Positions 1,471 to 30,043 of a stretch of DNA of 31,753 bases are shown in pieces. This DNA is from an uncultured Conexibacteraceae bacterium (GTDB taxonomy: Bacteria > Actinomycetota > Thermoleophilia > Solirubrobacterales > 70-9), in contig CAZQET010000376.1 of NCBI GenBank assembly GCA_964591825.1, forward strand, positions 1 through 31,753, written 5' to 3'. Both the position numbers and the translations under genes were made by a program. The notes beneath the pieces are model-generated. The model saw only the letters and a list, made by a program, of their open reading frames with translations, ran no database searches and was not told the origin of the DNA. Every line of letters starts with the position of its first letter. The stretch's first letter is position 1.

Positions 1471-2094
1471 CTGAGCGAGCGTCCACAGTGCCTAGTCGTC
1501 GACGGTCATCCGATCGTTCGGATCGGGATGCGCCGCGCGCTTCAGGATCGCTTCGAGGTCCAGGAGGCCGACAGCCGAAGCGAGGCCGTGGACCTGATTC
1601 GCGACGTGGGCAGCTTCGACGTCGCGATCGTCGAAATGCGCCGTGGGCTCGACGAGGCGGATCCGCCGAGACTGGATGGCACCGAGGCGATCAGGGCGAT
1701 GCTCAAGTCCGAACCTGGCATCGGCATCGTCGCGCACGGCGAGCGCGCCGAGCGCCACCTCGCCAGCGCAGCCCTGCAGGCGGGCGCCGCGGCCTACATC
1801 TCCAGGACAGCGGACAGCGACCATCTGCTGCGCGCCGCCCAGGCGGCGCTGGCCCAGGAACGCTTCGTTGACCCCGACGTGCCGCCGCGCGGCAGTCGCG
1901 GCAAGCTGACCAAGCGCCAGCGCGAAATCCTCCAGCTCCTCGCCAACGGCGAATCGACCACCGTCGCCGCCCGCGAGCTCGACCTCAGCGAAGAGACGGT
2001 CAAGACCCACACCAAGAACGCCCTCGCGCGACTGGGCGCCCGCAACCGAACCCACGCCGTGGCGATCGCCCTGCGCGAGTCCTTGATCGAGTAG
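1471..2094 (+). CDS. NarL/LuxR-type response regulator with atypical receiver domain; start uncertain
   Basis: C-terminal LTKRQREILQLLANGEST..AARELDLSEETVKTHTKNALARLG is a LuxR HTH. The receiver beta1-alpha1 (CLVVDGHPIVRIGMRRAL) lies upstream of the called ATG at 1528 in the same open frame. The only plausible in-frame start is CTG 1471, 5 nt after GGAG. Confidence 0.85.
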   Translation: MSERPQCLVVDGHPIVRIGMRRALQDRFEVQEADSRSEAVDLIRDVGSFDVAIVEMRRGLDEADPPRLDGTEAIRAMLKSEPGIGIVAHGERAERHLASAALQAGAAAYISRTADSDHLLRAAQAALAQERFVDPDVPPRGSRGKLTKRQREILQLLANGESTTVAARELDLSEETVKTHTKNALARLGARNRTHAVAIALRESLIE

Positions 2095-2098
2095 CCGC

Positions 2099-2194
2099 GG
2101 CCCGCGGGTCCTGTCGCCGCAGGGGACCCCCCACCCCCTGCGGTCGCTAAAGCGTCCTCGGGGGCGGGCCCCCCTACGGCGCCACCCGCGGGAG
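2099..2194 (+). repeat. 96-bp GC-rich palindromic repeat, copy 1
   Basis: GGCCCGCGGGTCCTG...CACCCGCGGGAG; 87/96 ungapped identity to 28974-29069 by manual alignment. Confidence 0.9.
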
Positions 2195-2293: not shown

Positions 2294-2392
2294 CTCCCGC
2301 GGGTGACGCGGTGGCGGGGGTCCCCCATAGCGGAGGACGCCGAAGGCGTCCGAGCACATGGGGGATGGCCGCCGCGGCAGGACCCGCGGGCC
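2294..2392 (-). repeat. Inverted, diverged copy 2 of the 96-bp repeat (99 bp)
   Basis: Reverse complement begins GGCCCGCGGGTCCTGCCGCGGC (20/22 with copy 1), retains GCGTCCTC internally and ends CACCCGCGGGAG. Confidence 0.75.
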
Positions 2393-2406: not shown

Positions 2407-3486
2407 TTAGATCCAGCCGCGATCTCGGGCGGTTAGTACCGCCTGCGCCCGGTCGACGGCGCCGATCTTGCCGTAGACGTTGTGCAGGTGCGTGCGGATG
2501 GTCGAGACGGAGAGCTGCATTTCTCCAGCGATCTGCTTGTAGACCATGCCCTCGGAGAGATGACGCAGGACGTCGAGCTCACGAGCCGAGAGCGGGCAGG
2601 GCTCGGTCACGCGTGAGACATCGCTGCGGGCATAGGGAAGCTGGTAGAGCAGGTCGCGCAGGGCGTCGGGGCTGAGGCCGCATCGTTTCGCCGCCGCGTG
2701 CAACCGTTCTGGCGATACCGCCTCACCCTGGCTGTAGTGGGCGACCATGTCGGCGGTGGCGACGAGAGCGGCGAGGCCCTCGGCGTCGTCGGCGTGGTGG
2801 CGCTCGATCGCCACCGCGATCCGCTGCGGCAGGTTCCAGCGCCGTGCCAGCACGCCACCGACGAGCGCGTGGTCGATGCCGAGGCGCTCGCGTTCCTCGC
2901 GCAGGCGCTGCTCCGGAGCCTTGGAGACGGCCTCGAGCGCGCCCCGGTCGCCCGGGTGGAGATTGCAGATGACCAGTCGACCGACGTCGTGCAGCAGCGA
3001 GGCGACGGCCAGTTCGTCACGATCCTCCCAACCGATCGCGCGACCTATTTCATCGGCGGCCTGCTGCGTCGCCAGGGCGTGGACGCGGAAGCGCTCCGGG
3101 CGCATCTCGCGTCCGCCGTTGCTCTCGAAGAAATCAAAGACGGGCGCGGTGCCGGCGATGGCGAGCACGCCGGAGGACTTGAGAGCGTCGATCGCCGCCG
3201 GAACGGTGCCGATGCTGCCGACCGGCACCGCGGTGCGGTTGGCGAAGCGCAGCACCGCAATCGAGAGACCGACGTCCGCCTCGACCGCTTCGATCAAATC
3301 GGTGACCCGGCCGGTCTCCGCCGTGGCCGCCTGCATCACCCTTGCCCGCGACTCCAAGAGGACGGGGAATTTCTCCACCGCCTCGAAGGCGGCGGCGAGG
3401 CGCGCTCCGGGGGCGGGACGAGCGCCGCCCTTGCTGGCCTCGCCGGGCTTGGTCTTGCCGTTGGTATGGGGTTTCGTGGTCTCCAT
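2407..3486 (-). CDS. HDOD-domain + LuxR HTH transcriptional regulator
   Basis: HDOD motifs DVGLSIAVLRFAN, ASLLHDVGRLV and DHALVGGVLARRWNLP..IAVAIERHH; C-terminal LSARELDVLRHLSEGMVYKQIAGEMQLSVSTIRTHLHNVYGKIG. Start moved to ATG 3486 (AAGGAG upstream). Confidence 0.9.
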   Translation of the reverse strand: METTKPHTNGKTKPGEASKGGARPAPGARLAAAFEAVEKFPVLLESRARVMQAATAETGRVTDLIEAVEADVGLSIAVLRFANRTAVPVGSIGTVPAAIDALKSSGVLAIAGTAPVFDFFESNGGREMRPERFRVHALATQQAADEIGRAIGWEDRDELAVASLLHDVGRLVICNLHPGDRGALEAVSKAPEQRLREERERLGIDHALVGGVLARRWNLPQRIAVAIERHHADDAEGLAALVATADMVAHYSQGEAVSPERLHAAAKRCGLSPDALRDLLYQLPYARSDVSRVTEPCPLSARELDVLRHLSEGMVYKQIAGEMQLSVSTIRTHLHNVYGKIGAVDRAQAVLTARDRGWI

Positions 3487-3617
3487 TGAGCGAAAACTCC
3501 TTGACCGCCTCATCGGCAGCAAAGGACGCACGGTTTAGCGGAGCCATCCCCAAAATTAAGGTCGAGAATCTAGTCATTTGTCCATTTGGGTGGACCAAAA
3601 CGGTTCTCGTTGTCCCG

Positions 3618-4979
3618 TCAGGCCGTGATCCGGGCAAGCGCCGCGTCGATACGGAGCAACGACTCCTCGCGCCCGAGAGCTGCCAGGGACTCGAAGATCC
3701 CGGGCGAGACCGAGGTGCCGGTGATCGCCACCCGGATCGGCTGGTAGACGCGTCCCGGCTTGGTCCCGAGGATGTCCGGGATCGGACTCAGCGCCGCCTC
3801 GATCGCCTCGACATCGAACTCGCACGCCTGCAGCGCCTCTCGCGCCGCCTGCAGCGCCGGCTCGGCACCATCCTTCATCACCTTGGCCCACGCCTTCGGG
3901 TCCTCGACGGGCGGCTCGAAGAGGAAACGAATCAGCACCCAGACCTCCTCGAGGGTCTGGGCTTTCTCCTGGGCAATCGCGCAGGCTGCGCGCAGCCGCT
4001 CGTCGAGCTCGCGACCCAGATGATCGGCGACCGCGGCCGCGTACTCGTCCAGCGGCATCTCGCGCATGAAGCGCCCGTTCAGCCAGCGCAGCTTCTTCTC
4101 GTCGAAGATCGCCGCGGCGCGGCCGACGTCCTCGACCTCGAAGCGCCGCACCAGCTCCTCGGTCCTCATCACCGTGGTGTCGTCGTCCGTGCCCCAGCCG
4201 AGCAGGGCCAGGTAGTTGCGCACGGCGGCCGGAAGGTAGCCAGCCTCACGCAGCTCCTGCACGGATGCCGCGCCATGGCGCTTGGAGAGCTTCTTGCCGT
4301 CAGGACCGTGCAGGAGCGGCAGGTGCGCGTAGCGCGGCGGCTCGTGCCCGAGCGCAGCGAGGACGAGCAGCTGCTTGGGGGTGTTGGAGAGGTGGTCGTC
4401 GCCCCGCACCACCTCGGTGATGCCCATCTCGGCGTCGTCGACCGCGACGGCGAAGTTGTAGAGCACCGAGCCGTCGCCGCGGGCGATGACGAAGTCGTCG
4501 TAGCTGCGGTTGGGGAAGCTGACCGGCCCGCGGATCAGGTCGTGCACCACCGTCTCCCCCTCGTCGGGCACCCGCAGGCGCACCGCCGCACCCGGCGCGT
4601 CGGTCGGCTCGCCGCGATATCCCCGATCCGCCCCGTGCTCGGCCTTCCAGGCCTCGACGTCCCTGGCGGTGGCCGCGTCGGGGTATGCCGCCCCCGATTC
4701 GAGCAGCTCCTGCAGAGCCTCCGCATGTCGCTCGGCCCGCCCGGCCTGCGAGACCGGGCCCTCGTCCCAGTCCAGCTCCAGCCACTCCATCGCGTCGATG
4801 ATCTGCGCCACGTTCTCCTCGGTCGAGCGCTCGCGATCGGTGTCCTCGATCCGCAGCACCAGCTCCCCTCCGCCGTGACGAGCGGCAAGCCAGTTGTAGA
4901 GCGCGGTCCGCGCACCACCGATATGCAGGGCGCCGGTGGGCGACGGAGCGAATCTGAGGCGGAGCGAGGAGTCAGACAC
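3618..4979 (-). CDS. gltX: Glutamate--tRNA ligase
   Basis: RFAPSPTGALHIGGARTALYNWL, LRIEDTDRERS and KLSKR class I motifs. Start estimated at GTG 4979; alternatives at 4997 and 5006. Confidence 0.95.
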   Translation of the reverse strand: MSDSSLRLRFAPSPTGALHIGGARTALYNWLAARHGGGELVLRIEDTDRERSTEENVAQIIDAMEWLELDWDEGPVSQAGRAERHAEALQELLESGAAYPDAATARDVEAWKAEHGADRGYRGEPTDAPGAAVRLRVPDEGETVVHDLIRGPVSFPNRSYDDFVIARGDGSVLYNFAVAVDDAEMGITEVVRGDDHLSNTPKQLLVLAALGHEPPRYAHLPLLHGPDGKKLSKRHGAASVQELREAGYLPAAVRNYLALLGWGTDDDTTVMRTEELVRRFEVEDVGRAAAIFDEKKLRWLNGRFMREMPLDEYAAAVADHLGRELDERLRAACAIAQEKAQTLEEVWVLIRFLFEPPVEDPKAWAKVMKDGAEPALQAAREALQACEFDVEAIEAALSPIPDILGTKPGRVYQPIRVAITGTSVSPGIFESLAALGREESLLRIDAALARITA

Positions 4980-23509: not shown

Positions 23510-23869
23510 CTAGGCGGCCGCACCCTCCCGGGCAAGCTCCACGAATCGGCGGAAGGCATCGCGGTCGTTGACCGCGATGTCGGCGAGCATCTTGCGGTTC
23601 ACCTCGACCCCGGCCTCACCGAGGCCGTGGATCAGCTCGGAGTAGCTCATGCCCTCCAGCCGCGCGGCGGCGTTGATGCGGGTGATCCAGAGTCGGCGGA
23701 ACTCGCGCTTGCGGTTGCGCCGGTCGCGGTAGGCGTACATCCCCGAGCGCTGCACCTGCTCTTTGGCGAAGCGGTAGGAGGAGTGCTTGCGGCCGTAATA
23801 GCCCTTCGCTTCCTTGAGGACTTTGCGCCGCTTCTTGCGCGCGTGTACGGAGCGCTTGACGCGGCTCAC
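23510..23869 (-). CDS. rplT: 50S ribosomal protein L20
   Basis: [26 protein letters not shown]...[18 protein letters not shown]. Confidence 0.99.
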
Positions 23870-24066
23870 TTCGTGCCTCCGAGCAGCGTCCGAACCGTCT
23901 TCACGTCGGACGGCGCGATCTCCACCGGCCGCGCCATGCGCCGCTTGCGCTTCGGCGACTTCTTCTCGAGGATGTGGCTCGAGTAGGCCCGCCGGCCGCG
24001 AAGCTTGCCGGTGGCGGTCTTGCGGAAGCGCTTCTTGGCGCCCGAGTGTGTCTTCATCTTCGGCAC
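23866..24066 (-). CDS. rpmI: 50S ribosomal protein L35
   Basis: (M)[20 protein letters not shown]...[13 protein letters not shown] is the last 66 codons of track ORF 23866..24915; its stop overlaps the rplT start. Confidence 0.98.
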
Positions 24067-24162
24067 GGGCTCGCTATTGAAGCAGACGGAACCCGTTCGG
24101 CGCACGAGCGCCCCTGTCTGACGCGTCCTTGTCTGACAGACAGCGCGGGTACTGTGGCGCGA

Positions 24163-25236
24163 ATGCGCATCGTCTACGTGGTCGGAACGCGGCCCAACTT
24201 CGTCAAGACCGCCCCGGTGATCGCCGCCCTTCGAGAGCGCTTGCCGAACGGCCGCCACGCGATCGTCCACACCGGCCAGCACTACGACCGGTTGATGTCC
24301 ACAATCTTCCTCGAGGAGCTCGGCGTGCCCGCACCGGATCACATGCTCGAGGTCGGCTCGGGCAGCCACGCTCAGCAGACCGCCCGGGTGATCGAGCGGC
24401 TCGAGCCGGTGCTCGCCGAGGAGCGGCCCGACCTGGTGCTGGTGCCGGGAGACGTCAACTCGACCGCGGCAGCGGCACTGACGGCGGCAAAGATGCAGAT
24501 TCCCGTCGGCCACGTCGAGGCCGGGCTGCGCAGCTTCGACCGCACGATGCCCGAGGAGCTGAACCGGATCGTCGCCGACCAGCTCTCCGACCAGCTCTAC
24601 ATCCACAGCCCCGAGGCCAGCGACAACCTGCACGCCGAGGGCATCCCCGCCGAGCGCATCCACCTGGTCGGCAACACGATGATCGACACCCTGGTTGCCC
24701 TGGAGGAGCGCTTCCGCGCCGCGGGCAGCGCGGCACGTCTCGGCGTCGAGCCGGGTGGCTTCCTGCTCGTCACCCTGCACCGCCCCGCCCTCGTCGACGG
24801 CCCGCTTCTCAGCGAGACGATGAGCCGCCTCGCGGCACTCGCCCGGGAGCTGCCCGTCGTCTTCCCCGTCCACCCCCGCACCCGGGCGATGCTCGAGTCG
24901 ATCGACTCCAAGCACCCGGGCCTGCTCCTCTGCGAGCCCGTCGGCTATCTCGACTTCCTCTCCCTGCTCGCCGATGCCGGCGCCGTCCTCACCGACTCCG
25001 GCGGCATCCAGGAGGAGACCACCTACCTCGGCATCCCCTGCTTCACCCTGCGAGCCAACACCGAGCGCCCGATCACGCTCACCGCCGGCACCAACACCCT
25101 CTTGGGTCTAGATCCCGCAGCGATCGACACGATCCCCGCATCCCTAGCCAAGCTTCCTGCGCAGCGTCCAGATCCGCCGTCCCTCTGGGACGGCCACGCA
25201 TCAGAGCGAATCGCAGACATCGTCGCGCAGCCTTAG
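24163..25236 (+). CDS. wecB: UDP-N-acetylglucosamine 2-epimerase (non-hydrolysing)
   Basis: MRIVYVVGTRPNFVK, VHTGQHYD, GHVEAGLRS, LVTLHRP, FPVHPRT, TDSGGIQEE, WDGHASERI; TACTGT hexamer 7 nt before ATG 24163. Confidence 0.95.
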   Translation: MRIVYVVGTRPNFVKTAPVIAALRERLPNGRHAIVHTGQHYDRLMSTIFLEELGVPAPDHMLEVGSGSHAQQTARVIERLEPVLAEERPDLVLVPGDVNSTAAAALTAAKMQIPVGHVEAGLRSFDRTMPEELNRIVADQLSDQLYIHSPEASDNLHAEGIPAERIHLVGNTMIDTLVALEERFRAAGSAARLGVEPGGFLLVTLHRPALVDGPLLSETMSRLAALARELPVVFPVHPRTRAMLESIDSKHPGLLLCEPVGYLDFLSLLADAGAVLTDSGGIQEETTYLGIPCFTLRANTERPITLTAGTNTLLGLDPAAIDTIPASLAKLPAQRPDPPSLWDGHASERIADIVAQP

Positions 25237-25250
25237 GGCGAGGTAAGGAA

Positions 25251-25328
25251 GGAGCGTCGGGTGGCCCTCCCCAAAACACTCAAGCGAGGCTCCTGCCGAG
25301 CGTTTTGGGGAGGGTCGCCCGACGCTCC
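25251..25328. repeat. Long inverted repeat between convergent wecB and infC
   Basis: 31-bp arms (25251-25281, 25298-25328), 28/31 complementary, 16-nt loop. Confidence 0.85.
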
Positions 25329-25342
25329 TCGCTCGCTTCGCG

Positions 25343-27994: not shown

Positions 27995-28046
27995 CGTGAT
28001 CTTCCGAGTCGCCGCCTCGATGCGGCCATGCTACCCACGCCCCCAG

Positions 28047-28099
28047 CCGCTGAGTTCGTGTTTTCTCTCGGATAGCGAGAGAAAACACGAACTCAGCGG
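28047..28099. repeat. Perfect 24-bp inverted repeat with 5-nt loop, overlapping the stop codon of the membrane-protein gene
   Basis: CCGCTGAGTTCGTGTTTTCTCTCG-GATAG-CGAGAGAAAACACGAACTCAGCGG. Confidence 0.9.
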
Positions 28100-29937
28100 T
28101 TTGGGGAGCCCTGGCGGGCTTGGCGGACAGCGATGAGTGGGCAGGGGCTTGGGCCCTTCTCCGCCGATCGTTCCCAGAGGGCGTAGGGCGGAGCGTGGCG
28201 TACCAGGCGCAGGCCGGGGAGTGGCGGCGCTTCACCGTTCGATTCGGCGATCACGTAGCGGACGCCGTGCGGGGGTCGGCCGTTCGCGTCCTCCGCGGTC
28301 TCGATGCAGACGCGGCCGCCGCGCAGCTCCCAGGAGATGTAGGGGACGCCGTGTTCGTCTTCGAGCAGCTGCCTGGAGGCGAGGACCAGGGTCGGGCCCT
28401 CGCCGACCTCGTCGCGCAGGCCGGTGAGCGCCGGCGAGTAGGAGCGCGGGCCCACCGGAGCGTTGGCAAAGGCGAGCAGCGAGCAGCCGGCCGCTGCTGC
28501 AAGGTAGAGCCAGGCGACCGGCCGCCGCAGCAGAGGCAGGACGATGACGAGCGCCGCGAGGGGCGCTCCGACCTCGATCGCCTTGGCGGCGGTGTAGGGG
28601 GTGCCGCTGACCCGGGCCGCTGCGTAGGCGAGCGCGGCTGCCGCCACACCTGCCAGCAAGGTCGTCTCCCGGCGGCGCCAGCAGACCACCAGGCCATAGA
28701 GGAGCAGGATCGTAGCGAAGGCGGCGCCGGCGTAGTAGCCGATCGCCGGCACAGCGCCGTCGCCGGGGCTGAGGCGAAAATCGCCGGAGGGCCAGATGCC
28801 GAGGGCCTCGAAGGGGGAGATCTGGCCGAACAGGTTTCCGAGTCCCGGGCCGTTGGGGTTGAACGTCTCGAAGCTGTGGAAGTCGATCATGCGGCCGAGC
28901 TCGGGGGCGATCAGGACGGAGAAGAGGAGGAAGGCGAACGCAAGGGCGCGGGCTGGCGAGGGACCAAGGCCCCGGCCCGCGGGTCCTGTCGCGGCAGGGG
29001 ACCCACCGCCCCTTCCGGTCGCTAAAGCGTCCTCAGGGGCGGTACCCCCTACCGCGCCACCCGCGGGAGGGGCGTTGGTTCGCGCCAGGAGCGTTTCGAC
29101 GAGCAACCAGACGACAGCCGAAACACCTAGCCAGATCAGACCCGGGAAGCTGTAGACGTAGACGCTGCCCACGGCGAGGAGAGCTGCCGGGACGAAGCGG
29201 AGGGGCAGCTTCTGCCACCCGGGATTGGTGGATGCCTCGCTCAGGGCCAGGACGAAGGCCAGGAAAAAGAGGGCCTGGAGGGTCTCCTTGAAGGCGCCCT
29301 GAGCGAAGTAGGAGGCGACCATGTAGGTGAGGGCGACGACGAGGGCGGCGGGGATGCGGAGGACGGCGGGCTGGTCGTGGAAGGCGACGAGCGCGGTCAG
29401 GGCGGCAAGCGCGGCGGTGGCAATCGTCAGGCCGGTGAAGCCCTGGACGAGGCCGATGCCGAGGCCCTTGCCCAGGGCAACGACTACGGCGTGCGGGCCA
29501 AGCGGGTAGCCCTGGCGCAGCAGTTGCGAGGGCTCGCCGTGGGCTAGGCGATCGGCGGCGAGCAGGTGCTGAGACATATCGGGGTTGAAGCCGGTGCCGA
29601 GGATGCCGAAGTGGCCTTCGGCGAGGAAGGGCAGGGCGGTGGCGGCGAGCGCGAGCAGGGCCACGGGCGCACCAATTCGCAGCGCTCCTCCCCCGCCCTC
29701 GAGCCGGCGCCACAGATACGCGACGCAGGCGATCACCGCCAGGGGCACGAGGACTGCGGGGGCCACGCCGTCTCCCGGCAGCCGCACCGTCGCCCAGCAG
29801 ATTGCACAGAGCAGCGCCAATCCGACCGCGGGCGCGAGCCAAGACCAGCGCCGCACCCCGCAGAGCGCGACCGCCGCCTGGCCGATCGCCAGCGAGGCGC
29901 CGCAGACGGCCAGCACGGCTGCGTAGGTCCCGACCAC
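28093..29937 (-). CDS. Polytopic membrane protein (614 aa), possibly GT-C-like; carries an in-frame repeat insertion
   Basis: Many hydrophobic helices; extracytoplasmic-type loop GTGFNPDMSQHLLAADRL..GYPLGPH; soluble C-terminal domain; TAGGCT 9 nt before the GTG. The family assignment is inference only. Confidence 0.8.
   Translation of the reverse strand: MVGTYAAVLAVCGASLAIGQAAVALCGVRRWSWLAPAVGLALLCAICWATVRLPGDGVAPAVLVPLAVIACVAYLWRRLEGGGGALRIGAPVALLALAATALPFLAEGHFGILGTGFNPDMSQHLLAADRLAHGEPSQLLRQGYPLGPHAVVVALGKGLGIGLVQGFTGLTIATAALAALTALVAFHDQPAVLRIPAALVVALTYMVASYFAQGAFKETLQALFFLAFVLALSEASTNPGWQKLPLRFVPAALLAVGSVYVYSFPGLIWLGVSAVVWLLVETLLARTNAPPAGGAVGGTAPEDALATGRGGGSPAATGPAGRGLGPSPARALAFAFLLFSVLIAPELGRMIDFHSFETFNPNGPGLGNLFGQISPFEALGIWPSGDFRLSPGDGAVPAIGYYAGAAFATILLLYGLVVCWRRRETTLLAGVAAAALAYAAARVSGTPYTAAKAIEVGAPLAALVIVLPLLRRPVAWLYLAAAAGCSLLAFANAPVGPRSYSPALTGLRDEVGEGPTLVLASRQLLEDEHGVPYISWELRGGRVCIETAEDANGRPPHGVRYVIAESNGEAPPLPGLRLVRHAPPYALWERSAEKGPSPCPLIAVRQARQGSPNR
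28974..29069 (+). repeat. 96-bp palindromic repeat, copy 3, in frame within a CDS
   Basis: 87/96 identical to 2099-2194; on the coding strand it contributes most of PPAGGAVGGTAPEDALATGRGGGSPAATGPAGR. Confidence 0.9.
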
Positions 29938-29970: not shown

Positions 29971-30043
29971 TGGGCGCTACTGGGCTCGAACCAGTGACCT
30001 CCAGCTTGTCGAGCTGGCGCTCTCCCAACTGAGCTAAGCGCCC
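29971..30043 (-). tRNA. tRNA-Val (anticodon GAC), CCA not encoded
   Basis: GGGCGCT acceptor, TAGCTCAGTTGGGAGAGC D-arm, CCAGC-TCGACAA-GCTGG anticodon arm, GGTTCGAGCCC T-arm, AGCGCCC-A end. Confidence 0.97.

Follow-up and report, generated by a model that had tools for sequence, protein, structure and literature searches.

The short palindromic elements of Rickettsia (RPEs; Ogata et al. 2000 Science 290:347; Ogata et al. 2002 Genome Res 12:808; summarised in PMC10969869) recur in low numbers, tens per genome, and lack an identified transposase. They lie between genes and also, in frame, within many unrelated housekeeping genes, adding a stretch of peptide with which the protein can still function, and their copies are inherited at orthologous sites. 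The MITEs of bacteria (miniature inverted-repeat transposable elements), among them Correia/NEMIS, ERIC, Nezha and the Anabaena MITEs (reviewed in PMC10969869), are small dispersed elements that do not code for protein, carry terminal inverted repeats and have the potential to form hairpins, and occasional in-frame copies within genes are known. Repetitive extragenic palindromes (REPs) and the bacterial interspersed mosaic elements (BIMEs) built from them, with their REP-associated tyrosine transposases (RAYTs; Di Nocera et al. 2013, PMC3733652), are imperfect palindromes, rich in GC, that are kept as hairpins; they often lie directly downstream of genes and prefer one orientation. By analogy only, one may add the hairpin GC clusters and double-hairpin elements known from the mitochondria of fungi and sponges (e.g. 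PMC2800124), which are mobile, GC-rich and able to enter coding as well as intergenic DNA. Here we describe an RPE-like repeat in 31,753 nucleotides (nt) of contig CAZQET010000376.1 (GenBank assembly GCA_964591825.1; hereafter the window) from an uncultured Conexibacteraceae bacterium, where one copy, copy B, lies within the gene for a 614-aa membrane protein. Our reading, to which we give a probability of roughly 80%, is that this is a lineage-specific hairpin repeat (81-111 nt) that was inserted in frame, is translated as an extra loop and has been remodelled since.

A hairpin repeat inserted in frame into a membrane-protein gene

Orientation is given throughout as E+ for the strand that reads CCCGCGGGTGGCG... 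and E- for its complement. The features on which the argument rests are the following.

Copy B core, 28976..29067, minus strand: 92-nt hairpin, CCCGCGGGTGGCG...CGACAGGACCCGCGGG, E+ on the coding strand, identified by pattern match, fold and family hidden Markov model (HMM).
Extended palindrome around copy B, 28953..29088, minus strand: 144-nt fold of -101.5 kcal/mol (z -5.5), also identified by alignment with loci L001 and L004.
Host gene, 28093..29937, minus strand: 614-aa polytopic membrane protein of an unnamed family, conserved and syntenic in Solirubrobacterales.

The element measures 92 nt, or 105 nt including its flanks, with a consensus stem of 32 bp. Copy B folds at -83.5 kcal/mol (z -6.2) and matches the family HMM with an nhmmer E of 1.7e-17; all three copies in the window, including the intergenic copies A and C discussed below, each form a single long hairpin on both strands, at -68 to -84 kcal/mol and z scores of -3.8 to -6.6. 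An earlier note on this DNA, made from its letters alone, had reported an ungapped repeat pair of 91% identity, and the pair is real: 2099-2194 and 28974-29069 agree at 87 of 96 positions, and 2094-2194 and 28969-29069 at 91 of 101. The same note described the insert as 32 codons long, in frame and free of stops. The frame and the lack of stops hold, whereas the 32 codons measure the block of similarity and not the insertion; counted with both terminal CCCGCGGG octamers, the natural unit has 92 and not 96 nt.

Within the gene, copy B occupies nt 871-962, or codons 291-321 of the 614-aa open reading frame (ORF), with its first base on a codon boundary and no stop codon, and three of its six frames (E+0, E-0 and E-1) are open. 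It encodes PAGGAVGGTAPEDALATGRGGGSPAATGPA(G), and 22 of the 31 residues of the peptide PAGGAVGGTAPEDALATGRGGGSPAATGPAG are Gly, Ala or Pro, in agreement with the Gly/Ala/Pro-rich segment between two helices that had been proposed: hydropathy places hydrophobic segments on either side, at residues 258-286 and 324-351. AlphaFold2, run on 28 close orthologues, gave residues 288-327 as coil, in a model whose mean predicted local distance difference test score (pLDDT) of 45.8 is too poor for a fold search. The codons of the insert are as atypical as the earlier note had suspected for TTA, GTA and AGG. Third-position GC content (GC3) is 0.63 in copy B as against 0.87 in the rest of the gene. TTA is absent from the 584 host-gene codons outside the insert and from 2987 codons in four other ORFs, and those 584 codons contain only two GTA, one AGG and no ACA, so that the gene's sole TTA and ACA codons lie within the insert. 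Translation would be marked by the predicted tryptic peptides TNAPPAGGAVGGTAPEDALATGR and GGGSPAATGPAGR.

The pairing extends beyond the termini, as outer stems (CTGGCG..AACCAA.GCCCC / GGGGC.TTGGT..CGCCAG) prolong the hairpin by about 20 bp past each CCCGCGGG. The flanks at 28953-28975 and 29068-29088 pair with each other to form this outer palindrome, and the right flank encodes a GLGPSPxRA motif that is common to a subset of orthologues across different clades; an older element, or a nested one, may have left them behind.

The host protein had no match among Pfam, NCBIfam and PDB sequences, and its homologues number in the thousands in metagenome-assembled genomes (MAGs) of Solirubrobacterales and Thermoleophilia. 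Alignment with orthologues had been put forward as the decisive check, a gap being expected at the loop, and this is what was found. The orthologues at 35-66% identity (P0122, P0124, P0125, P0127, P0133 and others) all have a clean gap of about 27-32 aa at the copy B loop, as do several closer ones, and in the syntenic orthologue L126 the loop DNA contains neither CCCGCGGG nor any trace of the element. The predicted clean gap in the orthologues supports insertion of copy B. Among close orthologues (73-85% identity), the majority carry the same peptide, some carry another and three have a gap; seven of them (L001-L007) are syntenic, lying upstream of thrS-infC-rpmI-rplT. The segment from YSFPGL to APE spans 33-44 aa when unoccupied (33-38 aa in 11 of 78 metagenomic orthologues; 80 further loci were covered) compared with 62-87 aa when occupied. 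The net gain from copy B is 84 nt (28 codons) if the L001 allele is the reference, and as many as 43 codons if the shortest loops are.

A second element site exists in orthologues of the host gene at about codon 440-480, in another loop that is variable in distant homologues. Copies were found there in L039:2249-2340, L044:409-500, L169:4427-4516, L180:4331-4420, L201:4405-4490 and L202:4303-4396, and in L169 both sites are filled.

The inserted DNA is conserved as DNA. In 17 orthologues that carry subfamily A at the copy B site, the element was compared with 400 flanking codons, and the mean pairwise identities were as follows.

Element: 90.2%
Flanking codons, all positions: 78%
Flanking third positions: 63%
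Flanking four-fold degenerate sites: 57.6%

Conservation falls fast to the left of the element. Within it, variation is concentrated at paired positions, with 99.4% of cells paired across 32 consensus pairs, and six pairs (35 cells) show compensatory double changes, a score equalled in 0 of 500 shuffles, while slid controls gave values near zero. We observed no intermediates between subfamily A copies of at least 82% identity and copies with a different interior, which suggests either constraint or that conserved master copies have recently replaced others. The conservation may stem from a function in the host, from the needs of a mobilising enzyme or from conversion by master copies.

The repeat family and its surroundings in the window

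Two further copies lie 27 kb away from copy B, between convergent regulatory genes.

Copy A, 2101..2192, minus strand: intergenic, same subfamily as copy B, E- relative to the response-regulator transcript.
Copy C, 2296..2390, plus strand: intergenic, 95 nt, with the family termini, a different interior (subfamily 2) and compensating stem changes.
LuxR-family response regulator, 1528..2094, plus strand: Pfam Response_reg and GerE; its 3' end adjoins copy A.
HDOD/GerE regulator, 2407..3531, minus strand: Pfam HDOD, HD and GerE; its 3' end adjoins copy C, and it is convergent with the response-regulator gene.

Copy A begins 7 nt past the stop codon of the LuxR-type gene. Copy C, a third and diverged copy that the earlier note did not contain, is inverted relative to copy A, ends 17 nt before the stop of the HDOD/GerE gene and is E- relative to that gene's transcript. 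From the ends that the copies share we derived a terminus pattern, CCCGCGGGTGRCG-N55-85-CAGGACCCGCGGG, which matches the window exactly three times (A, B and C) as against zero matches expected from 100 dinucleotide-preserving shuffles; the window has seven CCCGCGGG octamers, and six of them mark the ends of elements. A consensus scan for intrinsic terminators calls neither copy A nor copy C, and no T run follows either one. Having no U tract, these copies were ruled out as canonical intrinsic terminators.

In GTDB species-representative genomes the terminus pattern matched at least 118 stretches, and the family counts given here refer to the 124 copies among the matches listed. Of these copies 118 are unique and 65 are 92 nt long, within a range of 81-111 nt; 92 nt minus one terminal octamer leaves 84 nt, or 28 codons. 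Nearly all hosts among the listed matches are Solirubrobacterales or unnamed MAGs of Actinomycetes or Thermoleophilia, and they include closed chromosomes with several copies apiece; OY969915.1, OY970392.1 and OY969423.1 are examples of closed Solirubrobacterales chromosomes with the family. Three matches lie on contigs binned as Rokuibacteriota, Acidobacteriota and Chloroflexota (L022, L025, L038), which may be mis-binned; L038 carries a typical subfamily-1 copy, suggesting a mis-binned Solirubrobacterales contig.

The family termini are conserved and slightly asymmetric (5' CCCGCGGG-TGGCG and CGACAGGA-CCCGCGGG 3'), and the terminal inverted repeats CCCGCGGGT / ACCCGCGGG are invariant in 117 of 117 aligned copies, an invariance that the search pattern itself demanded. 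The interiors belong to several unrelated subfamilies, each of which keeps the hairpin, a 2-by-5-nt internal loop (GG / ACAGG) and a 9-bp terminal stem, and the outer stem positions covary strongly between subfamilies. In Rfam 15 only tRNA-Val reached the gathering score, and a permissive search added only far sub-threshold matches to miRNA precursors. A literature search found no such repeats described for Solirubrobacterales or Thermoleophilia; the earlier note likewise knew of no described family for this lineage.

In accordance with the proposal that the repeat colonises both intergenic DNA and protein loops, the family occurs at many unrelated places, between genes and within genes confirmed by Pfam, and in both orientations. 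As judged by a conservative heuristic that requires an open frame of at least 60 codons on each side and coding-like GC1, GC2 and GC3, 43 of the 124 listed copies (~35%) are intragenic, in about 14 gene families, and the other 81 lie outside long coding-like ORFs. Frame 0 is used by 29 of the 43 intragenic copies, 16 of them E+0 (PAGGAVGG...) and 13 E-0 (PAGPVAAGDPPPLPVAKASSGAVPPTAPPA), and overall 23 are E+ and 20 are E-. At a rough bacterial coding density, random insertion would place about 90% of copies in coding DNA, so that an intragenic share of one third amounts to depletion there. Among the 81 listed copies outside ORFs, 30 sit no more than 50 nt downstream of a confident gene end, and 23 of these are E- and 7 E+ relative to the gene, a tendency that copies A and C follow.

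The genes that carry the element have diverse functions, and the inserts outside the host gene mostly fall in linkers or loops, as indicated by hydropathy and Pfam coordinates. By Pfam assignment, the helicase Lhr (L008, L023) has two copies in opposite orientations, one splitting the DEAD match and one the Helicase_C match, and in DnaX one or two copies separate domain III from the C-terminal domain, with two copies of different subfamilies in L108:1447-3562. Single copies are found in RecG (after the wedge domain), in a Wzy_C membrane protein, in a 2-oxoglutarate dehydrogenase E1/E2 fusion (between the lipoyl and E3-binding domains) and in NuoD (at the N-terminus). The highest number per gene, three in-frame copies, occurs in a membrane protein of L090 (3437-5906). 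At L082:3962-4053 and L095:4225-4316, orthologous membrane proteins carry copies at the same site in opposite orientations, and the resulting loop peptides are unrelated (PAGPVAAGDPPPLPV... vs PAGGAAGGTTPEEALA...). Just downstream of 4097-4188 in the Lhr gene of L008, the 3' end of the element is partially duplicated in tandem (GSPAATGPAG twice).

In the neighbourhood of the host gene, the genes for glucose-6-phosphate dehydrogenase (G6PD) and tRNA-Val lie upstream and thrS-infC-rpmI-rplT downstream; tRNA-Val(GAC), at 29971-30043, shares the strand of the host gene and lies 34 nt upstream of its GTG start. Upstream of thrS, the stop codon of the 614-aa gene is overlapped by a near-perfect hairpin (28040-28106; 31-nt arms with 94% complementarity) that is richer in AT than the DNA around it. 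The orthologous spacers before thrS in L002, L003 and L005-L007 also have long hairpins, of differing sequence, and a CGTGGGTAGCATGGCC motif is conserved in seven of seven orthologous spacers fetched (L001-L007), slightly diverged in L005. This hairpin/CGTGGGTAGCATGGCC spacer may be a leader or terminator element of thrS. The infC-rpmI spacer is filled by another inverted repeat (25238-25341; 44-nt arms, -90 kcal/mol), which has no Rfam match and could be an attenuator or an L20-type leader. At 23866-24915, a mechanically called ORF of 349 aa owes its match to ribosomal protein L35 solely to the final 61 residues; the true rpmI is short, and the 349-aa ORF is an artefact of high GC content.

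Turnover at the copy B site and competing explanations

In different orthologues the copy B loop holds at least six unrelated interiors. Their peptides include ...GGAVGGTAPEDALATGRGGGSP..., ...GGADAGGPRTEAKPPPAGPPA..., ...GVSGEARRPVFRP...GEKPSAKTDTP..., ...GGSPPPGGCGGQG..., ...GRGSENGASLPRPQDP... and ...APHSAGRGAPEHMGE...; all start with (S/P)AGG and finish with TGPA, and all are long hairpins within the family termini. Some of these interiors are subfamilies that are found at other loci. Every copy detected by the HMM at this site is E+, and the other interior types share E+ termini. A neighbour-joining tree of the flanking protein intermixes the interior types (A, B, C) with short remnants and with naive loops. 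This mixing of types A, B and C with naive loops contradicts one ancient insertion that was then inherited vertically, and the constant E+ orientation contradicts many independent insertions. Since neither pure model fits, we infer turnover at the shared termini, in which interiors are exchanged by recombination or re-insertion and deletions occur in addition.

Individual alleles point to deletion. The L001 allele has a single CCCGCGGG at the apex of a retained outer hairpin, where L004 and the window have the element and two CCCGCGGG; that the terminal repeats recombined to delete the element is at least as probable as a virgin target, and we favour the deletion. L001 (P0090) was dropped as a candidate for a pristine empty site with an 8-bp target, its flanks still forming the outer hairpin and its nearest relatives carrying the element. 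L002 (P0099) was likewise dropped as an insert-free locus: it keeps GCGACAGGCCCCGCC, the 3' tail of the element, and is therefore a deletion derivative. L002 and others retain only this 3' tail, GCGACAGG.CCCGC.

We propose that one element entered a short turn between two transmembrane helices in the ancestor of the clade. The commonest net length of 84 nt (28 codons), together with a frame 0 that is free of stops in both orientations, would have allowed the reading frame to survive, and the element would be translated as a flexible, Gly/Ala/Pro-rich extra loop of about 28 aa. Similar insertions occurred in linkers and loops of many other genes, with intergenic copies settling mostly just past stop codons. 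In-frame copies could persist because the commonest length is a multiple of three and because loops and linkers tolerate the frame-0 peptides, which are stop-free and flexible. At the nucleotide level the hairpin is kept, as is much of its sequence, even within ORFs, and the occupied loop has later been remodelled through interior swaps between subfamilies and through deletions, probably by recombination or re-insertion at the shared termini.

The earlier note had spoken of a palindromic mobile repeat. The repeat is palindromic and dispersed; that it is also mobile is suggested by its dispersal, by presence/absence differences, by the occurrence of both orientations and by the subfamily structure, while neither a transposase, in 1.08 Mb around the copies, nor an unambiguous target-site duplication was found. 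Several observations weigh against the reading that we favour. The 1.08 Mb that surround the copies contained no two termini spaced 0.1-8 kb apart that could delimit an autonomous partner, and solo ends in the same DNA were near-complete copies with one mismatch, save for two 5'-motif matches that are likely due to chance (L003, L061). Clustering of the ORFs around the copies gave no transposase-like cluster and only host or housekeeping neighbours (DnaJ, DnaK, ClpB and LepA, by eye), and the family had zero matches on plasmids, in phages and in IMG/VR. Copy number is low: over 680 kb (the window and 89 orthologue loci), the family HMM found copies solely in host-gene orthologues, apart from copies A and C of the window. 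The octamer CCCGCGGG is both a direct and an inverted repeat, and conserved bases reach beyond it (..CTCT / CCAG..); an 8-bp target duplication is thus indistinguishable from the element's own terminal palindrome. Many of the 'empty' sites are remnants, so that no fresh transposition event is documented. The element identity of 90% was measured on copies chosen as type A, which is an ascertainment bias, and compensatory changes in DNA palindromes can also be produced by template switching without selection. Finally, the translation of the element, its way of moving and the cause of its conservation are all inferred.

It is possible, though in our view doubtful, that the hairpins are functional nucleic-acid modules which the host retains under purifying selection and does not just tolerate as selfish DNA, for example as binding sites of a dedicated protein, 3'-end or mRNA-stabilising structures or ribosome-pause sites at the borders of domains, and that coding copies are kept for their DNA or RNA and not for their peptide. 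Within the ORF the element is far more conserved than neutral sites, covariation preserves the stem, neither the internal loop (GG / ACAGG) nor the termini vary between subfamilies (though the search pattern demanded the termini), in-gene copies sit at domain or helix boundaries, and the 23:7 orientation bias within 50 nt downstream of stops includes copies A and C. However, genes carry the element in both orientations (23 E+ and 20 E-), orthologues do well without it, there is neither a U-tract terminator signature nor an Rfam family, and the conservation might come from recent turnover off conserved master copies. We consider it unlikely that the stem is instead kept by intra-strand template switching (quasipalindrome correction) and the similarity by gene conversion, with no selection on structure. 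Such a process would produce changes that are almost solely matched pairs, as seen here with 3 of 512 cells unpaired, and it would accommodate the exchange of whole interiors between loci with fixed termini and the presence of the same subfamilies at unrelated loci. Conversion within genomes cannot, however, explain an identity of about 90% in subfamily A across species with saturated neutral sites, and a conserved one-strand G.U pair (23/67; 16 of 16) should have been perfected away by template switching. A more elaborate and quite improbable alternative is a maintained cassette system, in which a putative dedicated protein would read the asymmetric termini and swap or re-seed interiors at fixed sites with orientation kept, the hairpins being selected for a nucleic-acid role in essential genes; this role could lie in programmed pauses of translation where domains or helices meet, in the processing of transcripts or in sites of chromosome structure.

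The peptide itself might be the selected unit, a Gly/Ala/Pro-rich linker module that spreads by its benefit to proteins. The dominance of frame 0 (29 of 43) and the position of inserts in linkers and loops would fit, but synonymous positions are as conserved as others, the two orientations yield unrelated peptides, at least six unrelated peptides occupy the same loop, many orthologues are insert-free and identical DNA is also intergenic, all of which makes this explanation very improbable. Hardly any credence attaches to the idea that there was no insertion and that the loop is ancestral and of low complexity, its resemblance to the repeat being due to chance or to an assembly artefact. GC-rich genomes are full of spurious repeats and palindromes, and most repeat families listed in the window are of this kind. 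Yet no chance matches are expected for the terminus pattern, outgroups have the clean gap, and more than 100 independent assemblies, closed chromosomes included, contain the element; these results and the loop lengths already refute the idea.

Relation to known palindromic repeats

An RPE-type phenomenon is now seen in an uncultured order of free-living, high-GC soil bacteria. It recurs in more than 100 independent assemblies, and the insertions, up to three per gene, reach core genes of replication, repair and respiration. It offers a second natural system for asking how selfish or structural DNA makes new protein segments. The contrast between 90% identity in the element and 58% at neutral sites, together with the alternative interiors at one site, makes selection on structure inside ORFs directly testable. 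In addition, the low-complexity loops and atypical codons contributed by these elements can mislead gene calling, domain annotation and searches for horizontal transfer in Solirubrobacterales MAGs.

The repeat resembles RPEs in functional class, as a long hairpin of about 100 nt with in-frame, stop-free copies in unrelated genes that are missing from orthologues, and with non-coding copies as well. Membership in RPE-1 to RPE-10 is unclaimed and a sequence relationship is not expected, the host being Solirubrobacterales. RPE hosts are obligate intracellular, AT-rich Alphaproteobacteria, whereas the present hosts are free-living, high-GC soil Actinomycetota; RPEs measure ~100-150 bp as opposed to ~92 nt here, and in the present family one site carries many alternative interiors within fixed termini. 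RPEs are recognised mainly at the peptide level, while here the nucleotide sequence and the stem are strongly conserved inside ORFs.

In contrast to MITEs, the entire length of the element is hairpin and not the ends alone, no parent insertion sequence with matching ends was found in the 1.08 Mb searched, target-site duplication is ambiguous, and the in-frame coding share (about one third) is much higher. REPs are 20-40 nt long, extragenic by definition and usually present in hundreds of copies, whereas the copies described here measure 81-111 nt and ~35% are intragenic; the GTAG/CGTC tag of REPs occurs in subfamily 1 only (GGTAGGGGG). The GC clusters of mitochondria differ in being organellar and eukaryotic, and their sequences are unrelated. 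An intragenic share of one third is far above that of REPs or typical MITEs and similar to that of RPEs (PMC10969869). An RPE-like or MITE-like palindromic repeat is the reading with the best support, and we rate it as a new family within a rare, already known class (RPE-like) that here appears in a new phylum; its nucleotide-level constraint within ORFs and cassette-like turnover at a fixed site exceed the descriptions of known examples.

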